64,000 nucleotides of DNA from a virus (IMGVR_UViG_3300016476_000292:3063-67062), one strand, 5' to 3'; positions 717 to 56,940 are shown, numbered from the stretch's first letter. Numbers and translations: made by a program. The notes: generated from the letters alone by a model not told the origin.

Positions 717-3700
717 CCTCTATCCGAGCCTCTTCCATCTGACGGGCGAGCTCCCCGATCAACACCTTCATCCGGTCGATCTCTTCCTTCTTCTGAGCGC
801 CGGTCATGTTCTCATCGTTACGGATAGCCTGGATGGCTTGCCGCATCTTGGCCATATCCTTGGATGCATTGTCGTAGAACTTGGCCATGGCAATCTTGTC
901 GCCCTTTTCCTTCAGGATCTCCTGCACCTTGTCTGCTTGACCCAGCTGGGCGAAGTGCCGCATGTCAGCGTAAGCCTGGCTGATCTCCTTGTTGTTCTCG
1001 TAGAAGGCCGTGACGTACTTGGACTGCGTGGCCGGCAGAGATTTGATGAAGCCAGCAGATAGAGTTTCAGTCCAGTTATTGTCAGGATAAGCAGACTTGG
1101 AAAACGGCATCACAGCATAGTGTGACAGCCATGAAGCAGTTCCCCCAAGCCAGCCGAAGTATCCCTTGATTGAATAGTCTGCTTGCACTGGAGACAGTTC
1201 CGCAGATTCTGGCAAAAATACATTGGCAACTTTTGATAAAGCAATCGCCAGCGGACTGGTTTTCTCGGCCACACGCTGCTCTTTCGATAACCTTTCCATG
1301 CCGGCAGTCTCAATCGGCGCACCGGTAAAGCTGTCCTTGTTGGCGTACAGATCCACCAGAGGTTTGAACATTTGTGGCATAGGGTTCAAGGCAAACGTAT
1401 CCATAAACATACGGCTCAAGCTGTCCTTGAAGACTTTGCCCTCTGCGCCTTTGTCAAAAATTTGTTCAGCCACACGCTCTGCCATGGTTCCAAAAGCGCC
1501 AAGCTCAAACGGTTTTGGTAAGCGCAAAGCTTCATCCATTCCAGGAATCTTAACCCACCAGAAGTTATCCCGATCCCACTGCTCGCGCTTCTTAAACTCG
1601 TCGTCGTCCTTGTACGCCATGTACAACGCAAGAGATGCCATGGCAGTGGCAACCATAACAATAGAAAATTGCTGTGCTTTTTGTTTGTCTGTCAGCTCTA
1701 TTGGTTTGCCAGTGGCTGTGTTGTAAATAACGCGGCTTGTAGGAATGATGCCGTCCCTGCCCAACTTGTACAAACCCTGCACACGAGCATTCAGGAATGG
1801 AACGACGTTGGTTAAAAATCTAAACGCAGGCCAAGATCCCTGCATGGAAAAATCAAGCAGATCGCGCGCGTAGAAAGATGCCTCAAGGTGGCTGTAACCC
1901 TTTTCTTTTAGCTGAGTGTACAGCGCCATCCTGTTTGCAGCCTCAGATTTGTTGCCCCATTCTTGATATTTGTCCCAGAAATAAACCAGTGCTTTCTTAA
2001 CTTTTTCTGGCGTATCTAAAATAGTATCTGGATTAACGCCTTTGTCTATCAGCCTCTTTACCATTTTTGCTTGGTCGCCCTCATACATGGAACCAAAGTT
2101 AAAAATGGCACCGCCAGCCAACGCAGAAATATGTGCAGGATTGTTCTTGTCTGAGTCAGCCCAACCTTTGACAACATTACCAAAAGGATCAAGCTTCAAA
2201 TTTGATGTTGCCATAGCAGCCCAAGAATCTCGGAAAAGGTTTCGCACCTTAAATCCCGGAGACAGCGTGACGCCAAATTGCAGCATGTTCTTGAAGTTTT
2301 TTGCAATGTCGATGAACTTGGACTTCGGGCCCATGTAGCCGATCGACATGATGGACTCAAGCAGCATAGGATCTTTAATATCAAAGTAGGCTTGCTTGCC
2401 GTCAATCATAGTCTTGACCAAGCCAGTTCCTTCACTTGATGTGTACTCTGGCTTCAAAGATCCATCGCCAATCATTTCACCTGTCTTGGAGCTATAAACT
2501 TTTCCGTTCCTACCATCATCATCAAGCCGCCACTCATAAGCTTTTTTCAAATTTGGAAATGCACCACCTATATCCATGGTCGCACGAATGGTCGCATTAG
2601 CTGCTTCGTTCTTCATGGAAGCAGACAGGATGTGACTCCAATTCCGCAGCGTGTTTTCCATCAGATCGCCAAACGGTTTTTCTCCACCTTTCAGCGCTTT
2701 CGAGAAGTATTGGTTTACCAGCCCAGTATTCGTTGCCGCAGCTTGTACATCGCTGTTCTCGTCCAGCATTTTGTAGAACGGTATGTAATTGATGTCGCGA
2801 GCCAGAGTTTCAAAAGCTTGCTGATCAATAATCCCTTGCTCTAGCGCAACCTTTAATACCGAACGGTTCAGCTTGTTCATATCCTTCTGAACTTGCCTGT
2901 AAACCTCCAACCGAGACTTGTCGCCAATCTTTCCTGAAGACAACTGGTCTCGTCGCGCAACAATCTTTGGATTGATTGAAGGGAATTTGATGCTTTTCTT
3001 AAGATTGCCAATCTCTACACGCTTGGAAGAGATTGCTTTATCAACATCACTTCTGTAGTTATCCAAACTTTTCCGCAAAGACTTGAACGCATCTCGTTTT
3101 TTGGCAGAAGAAAGGCTGTCATCATCAAGAATCTTCTTGGATTCTTTGTCAAATGCTTTCCCGGCCTCTGTCTTTAGAGCGCCCATCCTCTTGATTTCTT
3201 GTTCAGCCGCAGATATTTCATCGCGAGCGCGGTTAGATTTTTCGGTAATCGCCGCATCACGTTGTAGCGCCACCCAGATCTGATAGCGGTCAACCTCTGC
3301 GCCTACCGGCTCCAGCACCTTCAACAGCCCTTTTGTATCCTTGGCGATATCAAGAGCGCCGTCAGTTAGCTTGACCTCACCGTTGAACAGTATGCCCTCC
3401 AGCGCACCGTCGATAGTCTTCGACATGCGGGCTTTCATGTACGCTTCTTGGCTGATGTCTTTGATAGACCGGTACTGGTCAGCTATACCCTGCGCCAACT
3501 TCATCCAAAAGTCGTCACGCATCCCGTCAATCTTGTCGATGATGGTCTTGCGTTCAGGGGCAAAGACTGGCTCCAAGTCTGCATACAGATCGTCAGACAC
3601 GCCCTCGAACTGGCTCTTGGGGAGCTTGCGCTTTTGCAGAGCTTTCTTGGCCTTTTCCTTGACCGCCTCAACTTTGCTAGGCTTGCCAGCTTGCTCGAAC

Positions 3701-36767: not shown

Positions 36768-39140
36768 TTAGTAGTAAACGCGCCTGCGCGGCAAGCCCAT
36801 GGGCTCATCTTCCTCGTCCGACCCAAGCCGCAAGAATCCACCCTGCCGGAATCGCATCAAAGCCTGAACGCCGGAGTCAACCAAGTCATCATGTTCCGCG
36901 TTCGGGAACCTGGCAAACTCCTCAATCACCTCTTGCGCCCACCGGGTGTCGGGTGCCCACACTTTACCGGAAGAAAATAGGTCTGTAACGCTGTTCAAAC
37001 GCACGAATTTGTCGTTCCCTCGCGTCGGAGTGAAGTCCTGAACCATAACACCCATCCTTCTCAGCTCAAATATCAGCGGTGCACCCGCCGCCTTGGCTTC
37101 AATGATGCAAGCATCCGGCTCCCACTCGTCATACAGCTCTTTGGCCTTGGCTTTCAGGTCAGGAAACTCGACTTTCCCCTTCCAAGCGTCCAGCAAAATG
37201 ATGTTTACGTCGTTTTCGTCCTCGTCCTTGTGGAAAACCCCCCACGTAGTACAGGCCGAATAGTCACTTCGCTGGTTTTTTGTGTACGCCGTGTCCCAAG
37301 ATTGGATGATGAACTCGCATGGCGGGGCTCGATCCCCCTCATAAACCTGCCACCAGTCCCTTTTTACCAGTGCACCCTCTTCTCCAGTGGGCTTTTGCTG
37401 GTACTGAGCGTTCCATTTGTACGGCGGAAGCTCTTCTTTCAGGGCTAACAGCTCGTCTATCGGCCAAAACTCAGGCCAAAGGCTGTTTCCGCTCGGTAAA
37501 ATTGCCGGGAATTCGATGACTTCCCACTCCGTCGCGTCTGATTTCAGTACTCTGCCGGTCAAATCCTTGTCTGACCAGCGGGTATTGTGGCTTACAACCC
37601 CATTTGCTATGAAGTTTTCGGTTCTATCTACCTCAACGTCAAATACTTCCTCTTTGCCATCATAAGTTATTGCCGCTATCGGATCCGCCGTGAAGTCGGA
37701 GATACGATGCAGCTCGCTCAAGAATGCTTGGCGTCTTCCCATATCCAACGGCAAGGTTGCAGTCATTGCAGAGCAGCCCTCTGACTTTGCCGGTTTCATG
37801 GGAATGGTCGATGCAGAGCTTGCCATTCCAGTAGGCGCGTGTATTGTTGCTAGTTGGCGGCTGACCACATACGTCGCAAAGGTTATTGCGCTCCTTAACC
37901 ATTGCTTCGTACTGTTCAACAGTGATCCCATACCGGTGTTTGAGTCGGTGTTTTCTGGCTTCCTCTGATGATTTTTTAGGAATGTATTCTTGCCTGTAAT
38001 GGTTGGCACACAATCCACGGCTTGTAACATGCCTGTTGCACCCTTCAACACTACATTCAACGCCCTTCCACTTCCCGTGGCTGCCAAGTGGGCGATACGG
38101 TGCATCAGGGTTCTTGCGGTGGTAGCTGTCTTTTGCCTGACATGGCCCGCACTTTCCGGGCTTTGTTTTTGACCTAGATTGCCTGTTGCACCCTTCAACG
38201 ATACAAGTAAATCCCCCACTCGTAGCTGATTTAGCCTTGTCCATTCCAGCACTCCTTCGTTCATCACAAGAAACGGATGTCTCTCGTTTGCACGAAGAAT
38301 CTTACCAGATTGTGTTCGTATCTTATATATGGAATCAACACCACTTGACCGCCAGTTATTGATCTTGCTGACCGACAGCCTTCCTTTGTCAAAGGTTGCG
38401 ACAACATCGCCCGGCCGGATGTCGCGCAAAGGTTTTTCAGTGCCATCGTGCATCAGGACTGGCGTATCGCCGGTCATGCACATCACGATGACAATCGCTC
38501 CTCCAGGCTGTAAACGTTGCCGAGGCCCGGAGGTATACCACTCGTACACGCTATCAAATACAGACGGATCCCCTTGTGCCAATCTGGCTTCTTGTTCTGA
38601 GTGGGGGTCGTCAATAATGAGCAAATCCGCGCCTTTACCAGTAATAATTCCGCCGACGCCGATAGCAAAGTAATCGCCATTGTGGCTAGTGTTCCATCGT
38701 CCAGCCGCTTTTGAATCTGTTCTTAGGCCCACCCCTGGAAAAATCTTTGCGTATTGCTCGCTGTCTACAAGGTTCCTAACCTTACGACCAAACCCCACCG
38801 CCAGTTCGGCCGTGTTGGATGCCTGAATAATCTTCTTATTAGGGTGGTTCCCCAGATACCACGCCGGCAGCATGAAGGAAGCAAACTCAGATTTCGTATG
38901 TCGCGGCGGCATATTAATGATCAGCCGCTTCAACTTCCCTTCCGCTATCTCCTCAAACTTTTTGGCCATGATAGCGTGGTGCCGGCCATGAATAAAGCCC
39001 GGCCACATCTCATTTACAAAAGCCATGAACTTCTTCTGAGCTTTTTCCCGGACAACGGCGTCCTTGTATTGGCTCACCTGCTCCAGCAGTTTCTCCTGCT
39101 CAGCCGGCGGAAGCTTGGATATCAGTTCACTCAAGTCCAT
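36768..39140 (-). CDS. terL: Terminase large subunit interrupted by an intein (precursor 790 aa; spliced ~491 aa)
   Basis: INMPPRHTKSE Walker A region, LIIDDPH Walker B, IVIVM/TRW split by the intein, nuclease IQSWDTA and HDDLVDS. Confidence 0.95.
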   Translation of the reverse strand: MDLSELISKLPPAEQEKLLEQVSQYKDAVVREKAQKKFMAFVNEMWPGFIHGRHHAIMAKKFEEIAEGKLKRLIINMPPRHTKSEFASFMLPAWYLGNHPNKKIIQASNTAELAVGFGRKVRNLVDSEQYAKIFPGVGLRTDSKAAGRWNTSHNGDYFAIGVGGIITGKGADLLIIDDPHSEQEARLAQGDPSVFDSVYEWYTSGPRQRLQPGGAIVIVMCMTGDTPVLMHDGTEKPLRDIRPGDVVATFDKGRLSVSKINNWRSSGVDSIYKIRTQSGKILRANERHPFLVMNEGVLEWTRLNQLRVGDLLVSLKGATGNLGQKQSPESAGHVRQKTATTARTLMHRIAHLAATGSGRALNVVLKGATGMLQAVDCVPTITGKNTFLKNHQRKPENTDSNTGMGSLLNSTKQWLRSAITFATYVVSRQLATIHAPTGMASSASTIPMKPAKSEGCSAMTATLPLDMGRRQAFLSELHRISDFTADPIAAITYDGKEEVFDVEVDRTENFIANGVVSHNTRWSDKDLTGRVLKSDATEWEVIEFPAILPSGNSLWPEFWPIDELLALKEELPPYKWNAQYQQKPTGEEGALVKRDWWQVYEGDRAPPCEFIIQSWDTAYTKNQRSDYSACTTWGVFHKDEDENDVNIILLDAWKGKVEFPDLKAKAKELYDEWEPDACIIEAKAAGAPLIFELRRMGVMVQDFTPTRGNDKFVRLNSVTDLFSSGKVWAPDTRWAQEVIEEFARFPNAEHDDLVDSGVQALMRFRQGGFLRLGSDEEDEPMGLPRRRVYY
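37584..38480 (-). mobile_element. Intein (299 aa) in TerL at the IVIVM/TRW site
   Basis: Starts C(MTGDTPV), block B ANERHPF, block F VFDVEV..TENFIANG, ends VVSHN followed by +1 Thr. Confidence 0.95.
37660..38244 (-). CDS. Endonuclease VII-family homing endonuclease overprinted in the -1 frame inside the intein
   Basis: HRYGITVEQYEAM...CDVCG...CIDHSHETGKVRGLLCNDCNLAVG; two CxVEGCNR repeats; AAGGAG 7 nt upstream of the ATG. Confidence 0.9.
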   Translation of the reverse strand: MDKAKSATSGGFTCIVEGCNRQSRSKTKPGKCGPCQAKDSYHRKNPDAPYRPLGSHGKWKGVECSVEGCNRHVTSRGLCANHYRQEYIPKKSSEEARKHRLKHRYGITVEQYEAMVKERNNLCDVCGQPPTSNNTRAYWNGKLCIDHSHETGKVRGLLCNDCNLAVGYGKTPSILERAASYLRLHGGSDSGNNL

Positions 39141-49978: not shown

Positions 49979-51094
49979 CTATATCAAAAGGTATCGATAG
50001 ACAGGATTGCTGAGGCTGTAGTTCTCTGTCTCGCACCTGCTCCACTGTGCCGCGTTGACGATGTTGGCTGACGGGCAAGACATGTTTTCCTTGGCCTCGA
50101 CCATTTTCAGGTAATTGTTGATGATGGGCAGACAGCTGACTTTGCGGCCGGGCTGGTGATGATAGCCGCCCTCGACATGATCGCCGCCGTTGATGGCGTA
50201 CCCATCCAAGTTGCACACATCCTCGGCCAACTCTGCATCATCTGACAGCACGATCCGCGAGCTGCACCTGCGTGCCATCCAGCGCAGTTCCTTGAACCAC
50301 ATCTCACGCGGGGGTCGGATGGTCTCTGTCTGCAGCTTGTCCCCACCGCGCACGAACATCACGCCTGCTTCTTCCATGCCGTCGACCGTGCCGATTTGGT
50401 ATAGGTCTTTCATAACGTAGTCGTACGCCCGGCACTTTGCATCTGCAAGGTATAACGCGGTCAAATCCGTTGGCTGTAGCCATACCTTGCGGAAGGCATC
50501 AAAGCTCATCTGCGGGACACCGCTGCCGTACTGGAATGCCTCCGGGAATATCTCGTCGAATGGTTCTTCGTAGTTCCACCAGTTGCCTGACAGATCGACA
50601 TAGAAGTCATGACCGTCCATCTCGGCCACTGTCTGGGCGGCGATGATGTTCTCGATTACGGAGAAGAACCCGCTGCTGCGTGGCTGGTAGTACACAGGGC
50701 TACCGGCACCCAGCGATCCCTTGTGCATCTCTGTGTCCAGGCCTTGGAATAATTGCCACTTGTCTTCGCTGATGCCCCACTCTCTGGCCGCCCGCTCGAA
50801 GCCCACGCAGCCGGTGATCTCTTGCTTGTAGAAGAAGGTGGCCGGTAGTTCTCGCGGGAGCATAGGCTGGATGTCAGCCCACGCACACTTGCCCCAGAAG
50901 AACAACCTGGCAGCGACCGCAGGCAGGCGTTCGTTCAGCGGGTAGCTTTGTGCCAGCGAGCGCAGCAAGTCCATGCTGTTGTGCATGTAGTAAATGTTGT
51001 CCATCTCGTGGACGATGGCGTTGACCAGCGCGATGAACTTGACGTGGAAGTCTGGAGTTTCATCCACAAGTCTGTATCTATTGAACTGAATCAA
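49979..51094 (-). CDS. Putative GT-B glycosyltransferase (NodZ/FUT8, GT23-like)
   Basis: SSGFFS; GVMFVRGGDK (cf. motif I HxRxxDK); IVLSDD (motif II); MSCPSANIV (motif III-like). Confidence 0.5.
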   Translation of the reverse strand: MIQFNRYRLVDETPDFHVKFIALVNAIVHEMDNIYYMHNSMDLLRSLAQSYPLNERLPAVAARLFFWGKCAWADIQPMLPRELPATFFYKQEITGCVGFERAAREWGISEDKWQLFQGLDTEMHKGSLGAGSPVYYQPRSSGFFSVIENIIAAQTVAEMDGHDFYVDLSGNWWNYEEPFDEIFPEAFQYGSGVPQMSFDAFRKVWLQPTDLTALYLADAKCRAYDYVMKDLYQIGTVDGMEEAGVMFVRGGDKLQTETIRPPREMWFKELRWMARRCSSRIVLSDDAELAEDVCNLDGYAINGGDHVEGGYHHQPGRKVSCLPIINNYLKMVEAKENMSCPSANIVNAAQWSRCETENYSLSNPVYRYLLI

Positions 51095-51110: not shown

Positions 51111-51170
51111 AATCCATACCAAGCCGCGCCAGACCCGACCTAAACGTGCCCTTGCAAACCTCTCCCTACC
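51111..51170 (-). ncRNA. GGY-NN pentamer tract A (12 units), downstream of the Cas7-like gene
   Basis: GGTAG GGAGA GGTTT GCAAG GGCAC GTTTA GGTCG GGTCT GGCGC GGCTT GGTAT GGATT. Confidence 0.8.
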
Positions 51171-51780
51171 CCTGAGAAACATCAAACTTCACAACATTGA
51201 ATCGTCCGAACGTGGGGCGGAAGTCGCCGATACCCACCAGCCTGCCTGCCATGGACAGCGTGTCTTGCAGCCAATGGCGGTCGATATACTCCGGCGTCAG
51301 AATCATCAGATCAAAGTCCAGCCGGTAGCCTGCCTTCATTGCCGGACGCACACGGTTGACGCCTGCTCGCTGGATGACCACGCGACGCTTGTCCTCGTAG
51401 TCCCATTTTTCTTTGCCGAAGGTGGAAAGATTGGTAAGGCTGACCACGCCCGCCTTGGTTAGATCCATAGCTGACTTGCGGGGGCTGCGGGGATCCTGCT
51501 TGAACTTGGCTGCCATGATGATGGACTGACGTAGGTACTCGCCTGGGCAGCACAGCTCGCCGTCCTCGTTGCGCCAGACGTAGGACTCGATGTCATCTGT
51601 CTTCTTGGCTGCGGAATTCTTGGCCGCTTTGGCCTTGGTTTCTACGGCCTCGCAGTTCCAGCGATGGAACAGGAAGTCTGCGCTGCCCTCAATGGTGATG
51701 TGCGCCGTGTACGGGATGCTGTACTCGATTGCTTCTGCGCCGCCGTTGGTTACTTCTGATACTTGTTTTGCCTTTGCCAT
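51166..51780 (-). CDS. Solitary Cas7-like RAMP (RRM-fold) protein, 204 aa
   Basis: beta1 AHITIEGSADFLFHR; LCCPGEYLRQSIIMAA (Cas7 xPGxxLK/R helix); C-terminal Gly-rich loop AGRLVGIGDFRPTFGRF; AGGAG 7 nt before ATG 51780. Confidence 0.75.
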   Translation of the reverse strand: MAKAKQVSEVTNGGAEAIEYSIPYTAHITIEGSADFLFHRWNCEAVETKAKAAKNSAAKKTDDIESYVWRNEDGELCCPGEYLRQSIIMAAKFKQDPRSPRKSAMDLTKAGVVSLTNLSTFGKEKWDYEDKRRVVIQRAGVNRVRPAMKAGYRLDFDLMILTPEYIDRHWLQDTLSMAGRLVGIGDFRPTFGRFNVVKFDVSQG

Positions 51781-51801
51781 TTTCACTCTCCTAAGTTAAA
51801 A

Positions 51802-51861
51802 AACCCTCACCACACCGAACCGCAGCTTGCCCCGCCGTGACTTACCACGCCGTGCCCGACC
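51802..51861 (-). ncRNA. GGY-NN pentamer tract B (12 units), preceded by a GATGC-GTAA-GCATC hairpin (51866-51879)
   Basis: GGTCG GGCAC GGCGT GGTAA GTCAC GGCGG GGCAA GCTGC GGTTC GGTGT GGTGA GGGTT, then a T run. Confidence 0.8.
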
Positions 51862-51919
51862 GCTAGATGCTTACGCATCGCACAGAAGCCTCTATAAAGC
51901 CCCTGTACGCTGCACAGCA

Positions 51920-51979
51920 GCTCCTCATCAGACCCAAACTCACCATGCCCAACCTAACCCAGCCGAACCGGGTCTTGCC
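51920..51979 (-). ncRNA. GGY-NN pentamer tract C (12 units), preceded by a long GCAA-loop hairpin (51987-52018)
   Basis: GGCAA GACCC GGTTC GGCTG GGTTA GGTTG GGCAT GGTGA GTTTG GGTCT GATGA GGAGC. Confidence 0.8.
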
Positions 51980-52027
51980 TTATTACCGGAAGGAGGACTT
52001 TTGCAAATCCCCTATCCGCTGATAGAC

Positions 52028-52107
52028 AGCCCATACCCATCCTTAGCGTGCCTTGCCGAGCCGGAACATTCCATGCCCTGCCTAGCCAATCCATTGCCTG
52101 CCCTGCC
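52028..52107 (-). ncRNA. GGY-NN pentamer tract D (16 units)
   Basis: GGCAG GGCAG GCAAT GGATT GGCTA GGCAG GGCAT GGAAT GTTCC GGCTC GGCAA GGCAC GCTAA GGATG GGTAT GGGCT. Confidence 0.8.
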
Positions 52108-52113
52108 GCATTT

Positions 52114-52320
52114 TTATTTTCCAAGTATGGCAGTGGCTATCGCCTCTGCCGGGTTGTCCTGCCAGTCCCTGTGCTGGTGGCAAATCATAGCCGCACGCTC
52201 GCGCTCGGCCTCGCTGATAAACACAGCCAGCCGCTCTATCTCCGGCATGAAGTCCCGGAAGATCCCCCAGTCCTCCCCGCCAGCCCGACGTGCCAATTGA
52301 AATAAGTCTGCTTGGTTCAT
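52114..52320 (-). CDS. Hypothetical protein (EAERERAA motif)
   Basis: 68 aa, AGGAGG RBS, first gene after the tandem promoters. Confidence 0.55.
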   Translation of the reverse strand: MNQADLFQLARRAGGEDWGIFRDFMPEIERLAVFISEAERERAAMICHQHRDWQDNPAEAIATAILGK

Positions 52321-52344
52321 CTCCCCTCCTATATCTAGGATTCC

Positions 52345-52390
52345 ACTGTACCCCTACATCTAGGATATGTCAACACATGGTTCCTGTCAA
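52345..52390 (-). promoter_or_regulatory. Two overlapping sigma70-type promoters
   Basis: TTGACA(52390-85)-17-TATCCT and TTGACA(52373-68)-17-TACAGT. Confidence 0.7.
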
Positions 52391-54687: not shown

Positions 54688-55040
54688 CAAAACTACGAGA
54701 AGCGGTTGCTAATTTAATCGCAGTTAAGGGTAGGCATCATACGGAGATTGCGTACCAGCGTTTAATCGAAGCGTATGACGCAGCACTAACGCAGCCAGAA
54801 CAGGAACGCGATAGAGGCGGCGCTTGTGTAGTGGTCAATGGCACCAGCGGGGTTTTTACAATTCCTTTACCAGGCACACCGGGTGGCGGCGGCATTTCAC
54901 CAGCCCCATCACAACGCGAATGGCAGGGTCTGACGGCAGCAGAAAGGATCAACATTGTTAATGGCGCAATTGGTTTGATGGACGCTATTTCTGATGCTGA
55001 AGCCAAGCTCAAGGAGAAGAACTGTGCGCCTAACAAATAA
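54684..55040 (+). CDS. Mosaic protein with REWQGLT...EAKLKEKN module
   Basis: AGGAGG RBS, 118 aa. Confidence 0.55.
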   Translation: MTKLREAVANLIAVKGRHHTEIAYQRLIEAYDAALTQPEQERDRGGACVVVNGTSGVFTIPLPGTPGGGGISPAPSQREWQGLTAAERINIVNGAIGLMDAISDAEAKLKEKNCAPNK

Positions 55041-55899
55041 ATTCAACCTGCCTGACACTTTTATCAACGTCATACAGCGGCCTACATACAGCCGTGGCGA
55101 CAGTGAGATTAGCGTCACAGAAATCCTGTCTCCGCCCCAGTTGGTGCAGCTACGCCGCCGGCACGCTGAGGATATCGAGGAAGATGCCGCCGACCGCGTG
55201 TGGTCTCTGTTCGGCAGCGCCTGTCACAACATCCTCCAGCACGGCAAGGATGAGAACCACGTCGTCGAGGAGCGATTGTTCACGACTTTCCAAGGATGGT
55301 CTATCTCCGGCGCTATCGACCTTCAGGAATACCAGCCCGATGGCACGGTGGTGATCAGCGACTACAAGGTCACATCGGCATGGGCAGTACAGCAGGAGAA
55401 GACCGAGTGGATAGACCAGCTCAACATGTACGCATGGCTGGCAGAAACCACGAAGTCCGTGACTGTTTCTGGCCTGAAGATCGTGGCTATCGTGCGGGAC
55501 TGGAGCCGCAGAGAAGCGGCTGTCAAAGAAGGCTATCCGCAGGCACCTATCGTGGTGCTGGATATCCCGATGTGGGATCACGACACCCGTGAGTTCTACG
55601 TCAGCGCCAGGCTGAACCTACACAACGAAGCGAACTTTGCAGCGGTCAGCGGCAAGATGCCGGAGTGCACGCCGGATGAAATGTGGGAGAAGCCCACGAC
55701 CTACGCTGTCATGAAGGAAGGCGGCAAGCGGGCGAAGAAAGTATTCACCATCAAGCAGGAGGCCGAAGCGTTCCTGGCCGAACAGAAAGGAGCGCACTTC
55801 ATTGAGACCAGAGAGGGCGGCAGGACTAGATGCGAGAGCTTCTGTTCCGTGGCTCCGTTCTGTGAGCAGTGGAAAAACTACCGCAAGGAGGAAGTATGA
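55024..55899 (+). CDS. PD-(D/E)XK exonuclease (Cas4/RecB-like) of the recombination module
   Basis: FGSACH...ISGAIDL...ISDYKVT...QLNMY; C-terminal RCESFCSVAPFCEQW. Confidence 0.8.
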   Translation: MRLTNKFNLPDTFINVIQRPTYSRGDSEISVTEILSPPQLVQLRRRHAEDIEEDAADRVWSLFGSACHNILQHGKDENHVVEERLFTTFQGWSISGAIDLQEYQPDGTVVISDYKVTSAWAVQQEKTEWIDQLNMYAWLAETTKSVTVSGLKIVAIVRDWSRREAAVKEGYPQAPIVVLDIPMWDHDTREFYVSARLNLHNEANFAAVSGKMPECTPDEMWEKPTTYAVMKEGGKRAKKVFTIKQEAEAFLAEQKGAHFIETREGGRTRCESFCSVAPFCEQWKNYRKEEV

Positions 55900-56241: not shown

Positions 56242-56940
56242 ATGAAAGAAATCGCTTCAGCACTGGTGAAAGCGCAGAAGGAGTTCGGCCCTGCGCTGAA
56301 GACCTCTACCAACCCACACTTCCGTAGCAAGTACGCTGACCTGTCAGCCTGCGTCGAAGCAGTCATCGATGCCCTGAACAATAACGGAATCTACCTGATG
56401 CAGCTAACCGACGAGCATGATGGTGGTGTAAAAGTTTCCACCATCTTCATTCATGAGTCTGGCGAGCAGATATCAGGTGGATCCCTTTACATGCCGGCAG
56501 CCAAGCATGACCCGCAGGGATTCGCTAGTGCTCTGTCTTACGCCCGCAGGTACAGCCTGATGGCAGCCTGCTCTATTGCCCCGGAGGATGATGATGGAAA
56601 CGCAGCAACAGCGTCTGCGCCGCCGAAAGCGGCTCCTAAAGCTACGCCGGCAGCGCCGCCGAAACCTACCGCTGCGGCTCCTAAAAAGGTGGAGGGAAAA
56701 GCTGGAGAGTGGAATCTTAAGGTCTCATCAGAACCTGACACGAACTTCGAGGATTGGCTCGCGGTGGTGGTTGAGCTTACGGTTACAGCATTGGATGCTG
56801 CGGCGAGCAAAGATGATGTCATGAACATCTGGCGCACGAATGCCAACATCTACAAGATCATTGAGCAGCAGGCTTCTGATGCCTACGCAGAGCTGACAGG
56901 AACTTTCAAGACTTACAAGGAGAGCTTTGATGGCAACTAA
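56242..56940 (+). CDS. erf: ERF-family single-strand annealing protein
   Basis: ALVKAQ...NPHFRSKYADL...DPQGFASALSYARRYSLMAACSIAPEDDDG. Confidence 0.9.
   Translation: MKEIASALVKAQKEFGPALKTSTNPHFRSKYADLSACVEAVIDALNNNGIYLMQLTDEHDGGVKVSTIFIHESGEQISGGSLYMPAAKHDPQGFASALSYARRYSLMAACSIAPEDDDGNAATASAPPKAAPKATPAAPPKPTAAAPKKVEGKAGEWNLKVSSEPDTNFEDWLAVVVELTVTALDAAASKDDVMNIWRTNANIYKIIEQQASDAYAELTGTFKTYKESFDGN

Follow-up and report, generated by a model that had tools for sequence, protein, structure and literature searches.

A probable VIPR locus in a metagenomic tailed phage: a Cas7-like RAMP gene among four GGY-NN pentamer tracts

The locus at positions 51111-52390 of the analysed window (64 kb of DNA) is very probably a genuine VIPR (Viral Interference Programmable Repeat) system, carried by a metagenomic tailed phage of about 67 kb. 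The evidence consists of the pentamer tracts themselves, the predicted fold and homology of the encoded protein, its conserved contact residues, the gene-plus-tract architecture, the tails of two of the guides and the absence of self-targets. VIPR has already been published in three bioRxiv preprints of 2026 (10.64898/2026.04.26.720920, 10.64898/2026.04.26.720927, 10.64898/2026.10.15.759431). Therefore the locus is no new system, but a further VIPR member, its Vipr belonging to a clade remote from those tested (27% identity). The name VIPR had been put forward in the preliminary description of this DNA, and correctly so: the protein is homologous to the solved SUSP1 Vipr.

According to the VIPR preprints, Vipr is an early-branching RAMP of about 200 aa that polymerises along vrRNAs, each made up of a run of 9-16 YNNGG units with a structured 3' tail behind it. 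A vrRNA gene is recognised by four or more tandem YNNGG units (as a rule 9-16) with conserved GGY and hypervariable NN, lying in intergenic DNA beside vipr. GGY is sequestered by Vipr and the NN dinucleotides pair with double-stranded DNA, every third target base being skipped, so that competing phages and satellites are silenced transcriptionally (10.64898/2026.04.26.720920, 10.64898/2026.04.26.720927). Cryo-EM shows each GGY held jointly by two adjacent protomers, the residues reading G1, G2 and Y3 being H17, R138, D177, W178 or Y176, and R179. VIPR loci are minimal (vipr, usually one vap, and flanking vrRNA genes) and mostly viral. Array architectures vary among them, and seven types (I-VII) are distinguished, with six vap families across them. 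Systems with tailed vrRNA arrays include type II of Escherichia phage SUSP1, which has Felixounavirus relatives such as HY02, and of the Pseudomonas fulva prophage.

Pentamer tracts and the Vipr protein

The source record is an IMG/VR virus of 67,062 bp, rated 100% complete, and the window covers 64 kb of it. Its phage genes include terminase, portal, helicase, ParB-like, exonuclease and Erf genes. The 790-aa large terminase (36768-39140, minus strand) matches PHROGs in two stretches, at about residues 21-221 and 515-768; the approximately 290 residues in the middle are unmatched, consistent with the intein noted in the preliminary description.

Four tracts of pentamers were located on the minus strand, in perfect 5-nt register (Table 1). 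All 52 units start with G; GG opens 42 of them and GGY 34. The entropies at positions 4 and 5 are 1.89 and 1.99 bits, with 15 of 16 dinucleotides represented. The coordinates, strand and exact periodicity of the tracts, the three counts and the free variation of the last two bases had all been given in the preliminary description, and were reproduced exactly on recount. At the strand's own GG frequency, the probability of finding at least 42 GG in 52 units is 3e-38. A phased scan of both strands of the 64 kb, with a threshold of at least 8 GG in 12 phased pentamers, detected the four tracts and no other place, and no tract was detected in 30 Markov shuffles (maximum 7 GG in 12 phased pentamers).

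Table 1. Features of the locus in minus-strand order (positions are those of the window).
Feature	Position	Strand	Description
Two overlapping sigma-70-like promoters	52345..52390	-	TTGACA, 17-nt spacer, -10 TATCCT or TACAGT; likely operon start
68-aa ORF	52114..52320	-	Strong ribosome-binding site; between promoters and vrRNA1
vrRNA1 guide tract	52028..52107	-	16 GGY-NN units
vrRNA1 3' tail (type B)	51980..52027	-	48 nt; short hairpin using last repeat unit, then 8-bp hairpin with GCAA loop
vrRNA2 guide tract	51920..51979	-	12 units; last unit GGAGC part of first tail hairpin
vrRNA2 3' tail (type A)	51862..51919	-	58 nt; three hairpins: GCUGC-UGU-GCAGC; 13-bp helix; GAUGC-GUAA-GCAUC
vrRNA3 guide tract	51802..51861	-	12 units; ends about 10 nt before the AGGAG ribosome-binding site of vipr; no structured tail
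vipr	51166..51780	-	204-aa Vipr (ancestral-type RAMP, Cas7-like), by sequence homology and predicted fold
vrRNA4 guide tract	51111..51170	-	12 units; starts across vipr stop codon; ends 16 nt before next gene's start codon; no tail
371-aa gene	49979..51094	-	Real gene, directly downstream of vrRNA4

The protein encoded between the third and fourth tracts was compared with known Viprs at the sequence level. A phmmer search of PDB sequences returned 36pp_D, 'SUSP1 Vipr protein' (E 1.6e-5), with an alignment running across the thumb and the G-loop. A profile built from 68 family members matched the same entry with an E value of 7e-18 over residues 5-189 of 202. BLASTP comparison with the Vipr of HY02, a Felixounavirus related to SUSP1, gave 27% identity over 185 aa (E 2e-10), and hhalign a probability of 99%. 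The published GGY-contact residues H17, R138, D177, W178 and R179 align with H39, R145, D186, F187 (the aromatic residue is kept) and R188, respectively. The published alpha-bundle K33 aligns with A52, within a lysine-rich helix. The G-loop, GIGDFRPTFGRF, occupies residues 183-194.

The fold was assessed on a predicted structure. AlphaFold run from the single sequence gave a pLDDT of 38.6, and this model was replaced by an AF2 model from the 68-sequence alignment (pLDDT 94, pTM 0.87). The preliminary description had taken the 204-aa protein to be a Cas7-like RAMP, and the model bears this out. The best Foldseek matches are type VII Cas7 and Csm3 (E 4e-8, probability 1.0). VIA-align placed only CRISPR RAMPs at ranks 1-29 (down to Z 7.3), with Cmr4, Csm3 and Cas7 in the lead (Z 12.1-10). 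The family is large, with 6,247 clusters in one database (E <=1e-3) and 953 representatives at 50% identity in another. Vipr has no match in Pfam, and its only match in PHROGs is phrog_4652, of 'unknown function'.

The preliminary description had also stated that the window holds no CRISPR repeat-spacer array and no cas1/2/3/5. Both CRISPR-type interspaced repeats and Cas1 are absent from the whole phage record. The exonuclease gene at 54994-55899 (plus strand; PD-(D/E)XK, phrog_2139) has 'exonuclease' as its best PHROG match. A second, weak match (E 5.8e-6) is to a PHROG that bears the label 'CRISPR/Cas system associated', but this does not make it a cas operon. Together with the Erf-like annealing protein at 56242-56940 (plus strand), it lies on the opposite strand beyond the locus and has the look of a recombination module.

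Architecture of the locus and of its relatives

On the minus strand, the order is HNH endonuclease gene, promoters, 68-aa ORF, vrRNA1, vrRNA2, vrRNA3, vipr, vrRNA4 and 371-aa gene. Tandem consensus sigma70 promoters had been proposed at the start of this series. Both -35 boxes and both 17-nt spacers hold, but the -10 boxes are imperfect, so that the word 'consensus' fits the -35 boxes only. Each promoter site scores 10 of 12 matches. Because shuffles gave a mean of 1.1 such sites, they are to be taken as consensus matches only.

The two tracts furthest upstream are each followed by a structured 3' tail. The vrRNA1 tail folds with an MFE of -19.6 kcal/mol (z -2.3). The same type B tail also follows tracts in three related loci (L003, L010, L012), with compensatory changes visible in the sequences. 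Folding of the vrRNA2 tail gave an MFE of -31.1 kcal/mol (z -4.1), and an equally good fold was obtained in 0 of 200 shuffles. In 22 type A tails of this phage clade, compensatory changes occur at 8 of the 13 pairs of the central helix. The paired share of its cells is 97.9%, and slid controls reach no more than 48.5%. As the last repeat unit forms part of the first hairpin of this tail, the tail and its preceding tract are tied together. No structured 3' end was detected on folding for vrRNA3 and vrRNA4, both of which run straight into ribosome-binding sites. Thus a structured tail is present at vrRNA1 and vrRNA2 and absent at vrRNA3 and vrRNA4. The spacers between the vrRNAs fold as plain hairpins. 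Hammerhead ribozymes between the guides were considered and rejected: the sole Rfam match was Hammerhead_II with 15.9 bits (gathering threshold 37) and an E value of 5.7, and it fell on the repeat tract itself.

The genes on either side of this array were searched for a vap. The 68-aa ORF has no Pfam or PHROG match, and the only phages in which homologues turned up are L003 and L004, the two closest. The 371-aa gene has 78 homologues at 26-91% identity (most at 37-91%), most of them near 371 aa long. It also lacks Pfam and PHROG matches, and it adjoins vipr only in L003 and L004; it is probably not a vap. Neither neighbour was retained as a candidate for a conserved vap, as neither is kept beyond the two closest phages. 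Moreover, HY02 vap1 has no homologue anywhere in the phage. Therefore no vap was recognised at the locus. In the published account a vap gene is 'typically' present in VIPR loci, and its presence was therefore not taken as strictly defining. Weak ESM Atlas leads (0.86) connect the 371-aa gene to FUT8/NodZ-like fucosyltransferase clusters, and may fit the glycosyltransferase genes noted at 58.9-64 kb in the preliminary description.

The association of gene and tracts was then examined in other phages (L numbers designate individual records). Among the 80 IMG/VR loci encoding a Vipr relative at 53-92% identity, 76 carry GG-pentamer tracts beside the vipr homologue, almost always on the gene's strand. 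The closest phage record by tblastn among the matches listed, from which the phage's own genome or very near records were possibly excluded, is phage DSL-LC04 (GenBank OR003939, WJZ48083; L001 22429-23046). Its Vipr is 71% identical, and three GGY-NN tracts lie directly upstream. The periodicity expected beside homologues in other phages was thus found both in these 76 loci and in DSL-LC04. The DSL-LC04 homologue is annotated as a 'helix-turn-helix transcriptional regulator'; given the three tracts directly upstream, this annotation is probably wrong.

In phages whose Vipr is 82-92% identical to the present one, the NN strings differ, and GGY, the inter-tract sequences and the tails are kept. 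A changing NN beside kept GGY and inter-tract sequence is the published signature of guides. Guides homologous to vrRNA3 are present in L004, L009 and L014. The tail-less tract adjoining vipr is kept in L003-L014, and a downstream tract occupies the place of vrRNA4 in L004-L014, with different NN.

The relatives also display features of their own. Very long unbroken tracts lie either downstream or upstream of vipr in L057:3593-4307, L021:2424-2788, L046, L047, L060 and L066. The longest tract in relatives counts 143 consecutive pentamers (715 nt), versus 9-16 units in characterised vrRNAs; such tracts may be staggered or unprocessed arrays. L080 carries two tracts (951-1010 and 2530-2604, minus strand) opposite to its vipr strand, besides those on the gene's own strand. 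In many relatives (L015-L017, L022-L024, L028-L042), vipr is located in a recombination/replication module, by an AAA_24 (PF13479) ATPase, a phrog_2480 protein or an SF2 helicase. Here, unlike in these relatives, it lies between the HNH endonuclease gene and the ParB-like gene.

Candidate targets, proposed mechanism and alternative readings

In the preprints, natural targets were sought with nhmmer at a minimum of 80% NN match, the skipped base falls on the codon wobble position, and the authors' own self-target control revealed no self-targets. In the genome of the present phage, no guide exceeded 62-67% NN match under the xNN rule. Exact scans with full or trimmed patterns spanned IMG/VR, JGI metagenomes and GTDB genomes, and returned nothing for vrRNA1, vrRNA2 and vrRNA4. 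In IMG/VR there were 0 exact matches to the full-length xNN pattern of any of the four guides. There were also 0 to the 10-unit trimmed patterns of vrRNA4 and vrRNA2, and 0 to the 14-unit vrRNA1 pattern in JGI metagenomes.

The best target lead was obtained for vrRNA3. When 479 kb of related loci were scanned without bias, this guide matched 16-17 of 20 NN bases at the 3' ends of phrog_2480 genes, the skipped base coinciding with the wobble position. Scans with its 8- and 9-unit cores yielded two phrog_2480 genes in which units 1-9 are perfect, one in a temperate-phage fragment (L090) and one in a Pseudorhodoplanes MAG (L095), both in an early region beside a CI-like repressor. The homologous guide of L004 reaches 17 of 20 at that site of L090. 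This lead was weakened by the controls and did not survive them. The vrRNA3 core also matches, in frame, a DNA polymerase, a portal, a tail-fibre and two unknown ORFs, two of these matches reaching 18-19 of 20. Metagenomes contained a single exact 10-unit match, which lies in an unrelated ORF but not in its reading frame. For vrRNA2, 17 of 20 NN were matched in frame in a RuvC-like gene on the L022 contig, which also carries a near-match to vrRNA3. No closer vrRNA2 match was detected in 401 genomes of the order of the L095 MAG (three chance-like matches) or in five further records. When 45 guides of the clade were compared with six candidate target records, 5 matches of at least 17/20 were obtained, which is not significant: 20 shuffled runs gave 0-5 (mean about 1.8), one of them reaching 5. 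With equally good matches in unrelated genes and a non-significant enrichment, the leads fail their controls, and therefore no target is claimed.

For this clade, transcription, processing, RNP formation, the DNA-binding rule and what is targeted are inferred from homology. One transcript probably extends from the tandem promoters (52390-52345) through the 68-aa ORF, three vrRNAs, vipr and the fourth vrRNA to the genes that follow. If the characterised systems of SUSP1 and P. fulva are a guide, Vipr protomers would polymerise along each GGY-NN tract. Every GGY would be sequestered by His39, Arg145, Asp186, Phe187 and Arg188, and the NN dinucleotides would be presented. The filament would read double-stranded DNA by a 1-nt-skip rule (target xNN xNN ...), an R-loop triplex would form and transcription of a competing mobile element would be blocked. 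With only 27% identity to the tested Vipr, this clade could follow another skip rule. Much of this scheme had been anticipated in the preliminary description. A gripped GGY and an NN presented as a non-contiguous guide agree with what the VIPR papers describe for homologous systems, and the locus has the corresponding sequence features and fold. The suggested action against phages or on transcription is also what these papers report for such systems. The grip of one GGY by each subunit was right as to sequestration, but has to be refined, two adjacent protomers sharing each GGY in the cryo-EM structures.

Three other readings were weighed against a VIPR system with four guides. A first possibility is that the tracts arose by chance or as simple G-rich DNA independent of the gene, for instance DNA that forms G-quadruplexes; only their G-richness speaks for it. 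The exact 5-nt phase (p about 3e-38), which no shuffle in the phased scan reproduced, and the same-strand tracts beside homologous genes in 76 of 80 loci refute it, and we give it practically no credence. It is also very unlikely that this Vipr relative acts on RNA or pairs by another rule, with 0, 2 or 3 skipped bases. Such a departure would be compatible with the 27% identity to the tested Vipr and with the lack of a convincing xNN target, but the GGY-contact residues and the G-loop are conserved, patterns with 0 or 2 skipped bases gave no better matches in the phage's own genome, and in the near-matches, as in the preprints, it is the codon wobble position that is skipped.

The third reading concerns only the tail-less vrRNA3 and vrRNA4, whose main role would be regulation in cis. 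By coating the leader of its own mRNA, Vipr would block access to the ribosome-binding site 10-16 nt downstream, in a negative feedback. Release of these two tracts as guides would not occur, or would be only part of their function. Their ending directly before a ribosome-binding site with no structured tail points this way, as does the conserved placement of the tail-less tract in L003-L014. However, the NN series of both tracts vary among relatives like those of other guides, homologous vrRNA3 guides exist in L004, L009 and L014, and the published systems do without such a role. We therefore regard a mainly cis-regulatory function as unlikely. A combined form, in which the locus is a vap-less VIPR variant whose leader-embedded guides also act as translational autoregulators of vipr and the next gene, and whose vrRNA3 silences the early operon in temperate alphaproteobacterial phages, acting at the 3' end of a phrog_2480 gene, is conceivable but rather improbable. 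A VIPR system with guides in all four tracts thus remains the preferred reading.

Relation to known systems

The locus adds a well-documented example of VIPR in a complete genome, from a clade distant from the tested Viprs. It supplies a defined tail RNA motif with covariation and recurrent tail-less guides in mRNA leaders, and leaves the understanding of how VIPR works unchanged. It also illustrates that public annotation misses the Vipr family: Pfam has no entry matching it, PHROGs give 'unknown function' and the closest GenBank phage names an HTH regulator.

Compared with the SUSP1 clade, the Vipr studied here is only 27% identical and its phage has no vap1 homologue. The three-hairpin tail differs from the pseudoknot tail that the paper describes for that clade. 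Unlike the published tailed vrRNAs, two of the four tracts are tail-less and abut ribosome-binding sites, and no hammerhead ribozymes separate the vrRNAs, in contrast to hammerhead-interspersed VIPR arrays. DSL-LC04 differs from the present locus by another downstream gene (147 aa) and by having no downstream tract.

The features held in common are nevertheless extensive. As in SUSP1/HY02 and P. fulva VIPR, Vipr is a protein of about 200 aa with an RRM core, a thumb, a G-loop (GxGD[WFY]RPxFGRF) and the GGY-contact residues kept. As in the SUSP1 and P. fulva systems, vrRNAs of 12-16 GGY-NN units lie on the gene's strand in flanking intergenic DNA, structured tails occur (here on two vrRNAs), and the system is phage-borne, with no CRISPR array and no self-targets. 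Three vrRNAs upstream of vipr are also found in the Pseudomonas fulva prophage VIPR.

Finally, the predicted model has the same RAMP fold as the Cas7 proteins of class 1 CRISPR systems (Csm3, Cmr4, type VII Cas7). Unlike in CRISPR-Cas, there is no array, Cas1 or other cas gene, and sequence identity is 8-16%. Polymerisation on a guide RNA and a thumb flipping bases at a fixed period, as published for Vipr and presumably valid here, are shared with Cas7. The period is 5 with three guide bases sequestered in Vipr, versus 6 with one base sequestered in Cas7.
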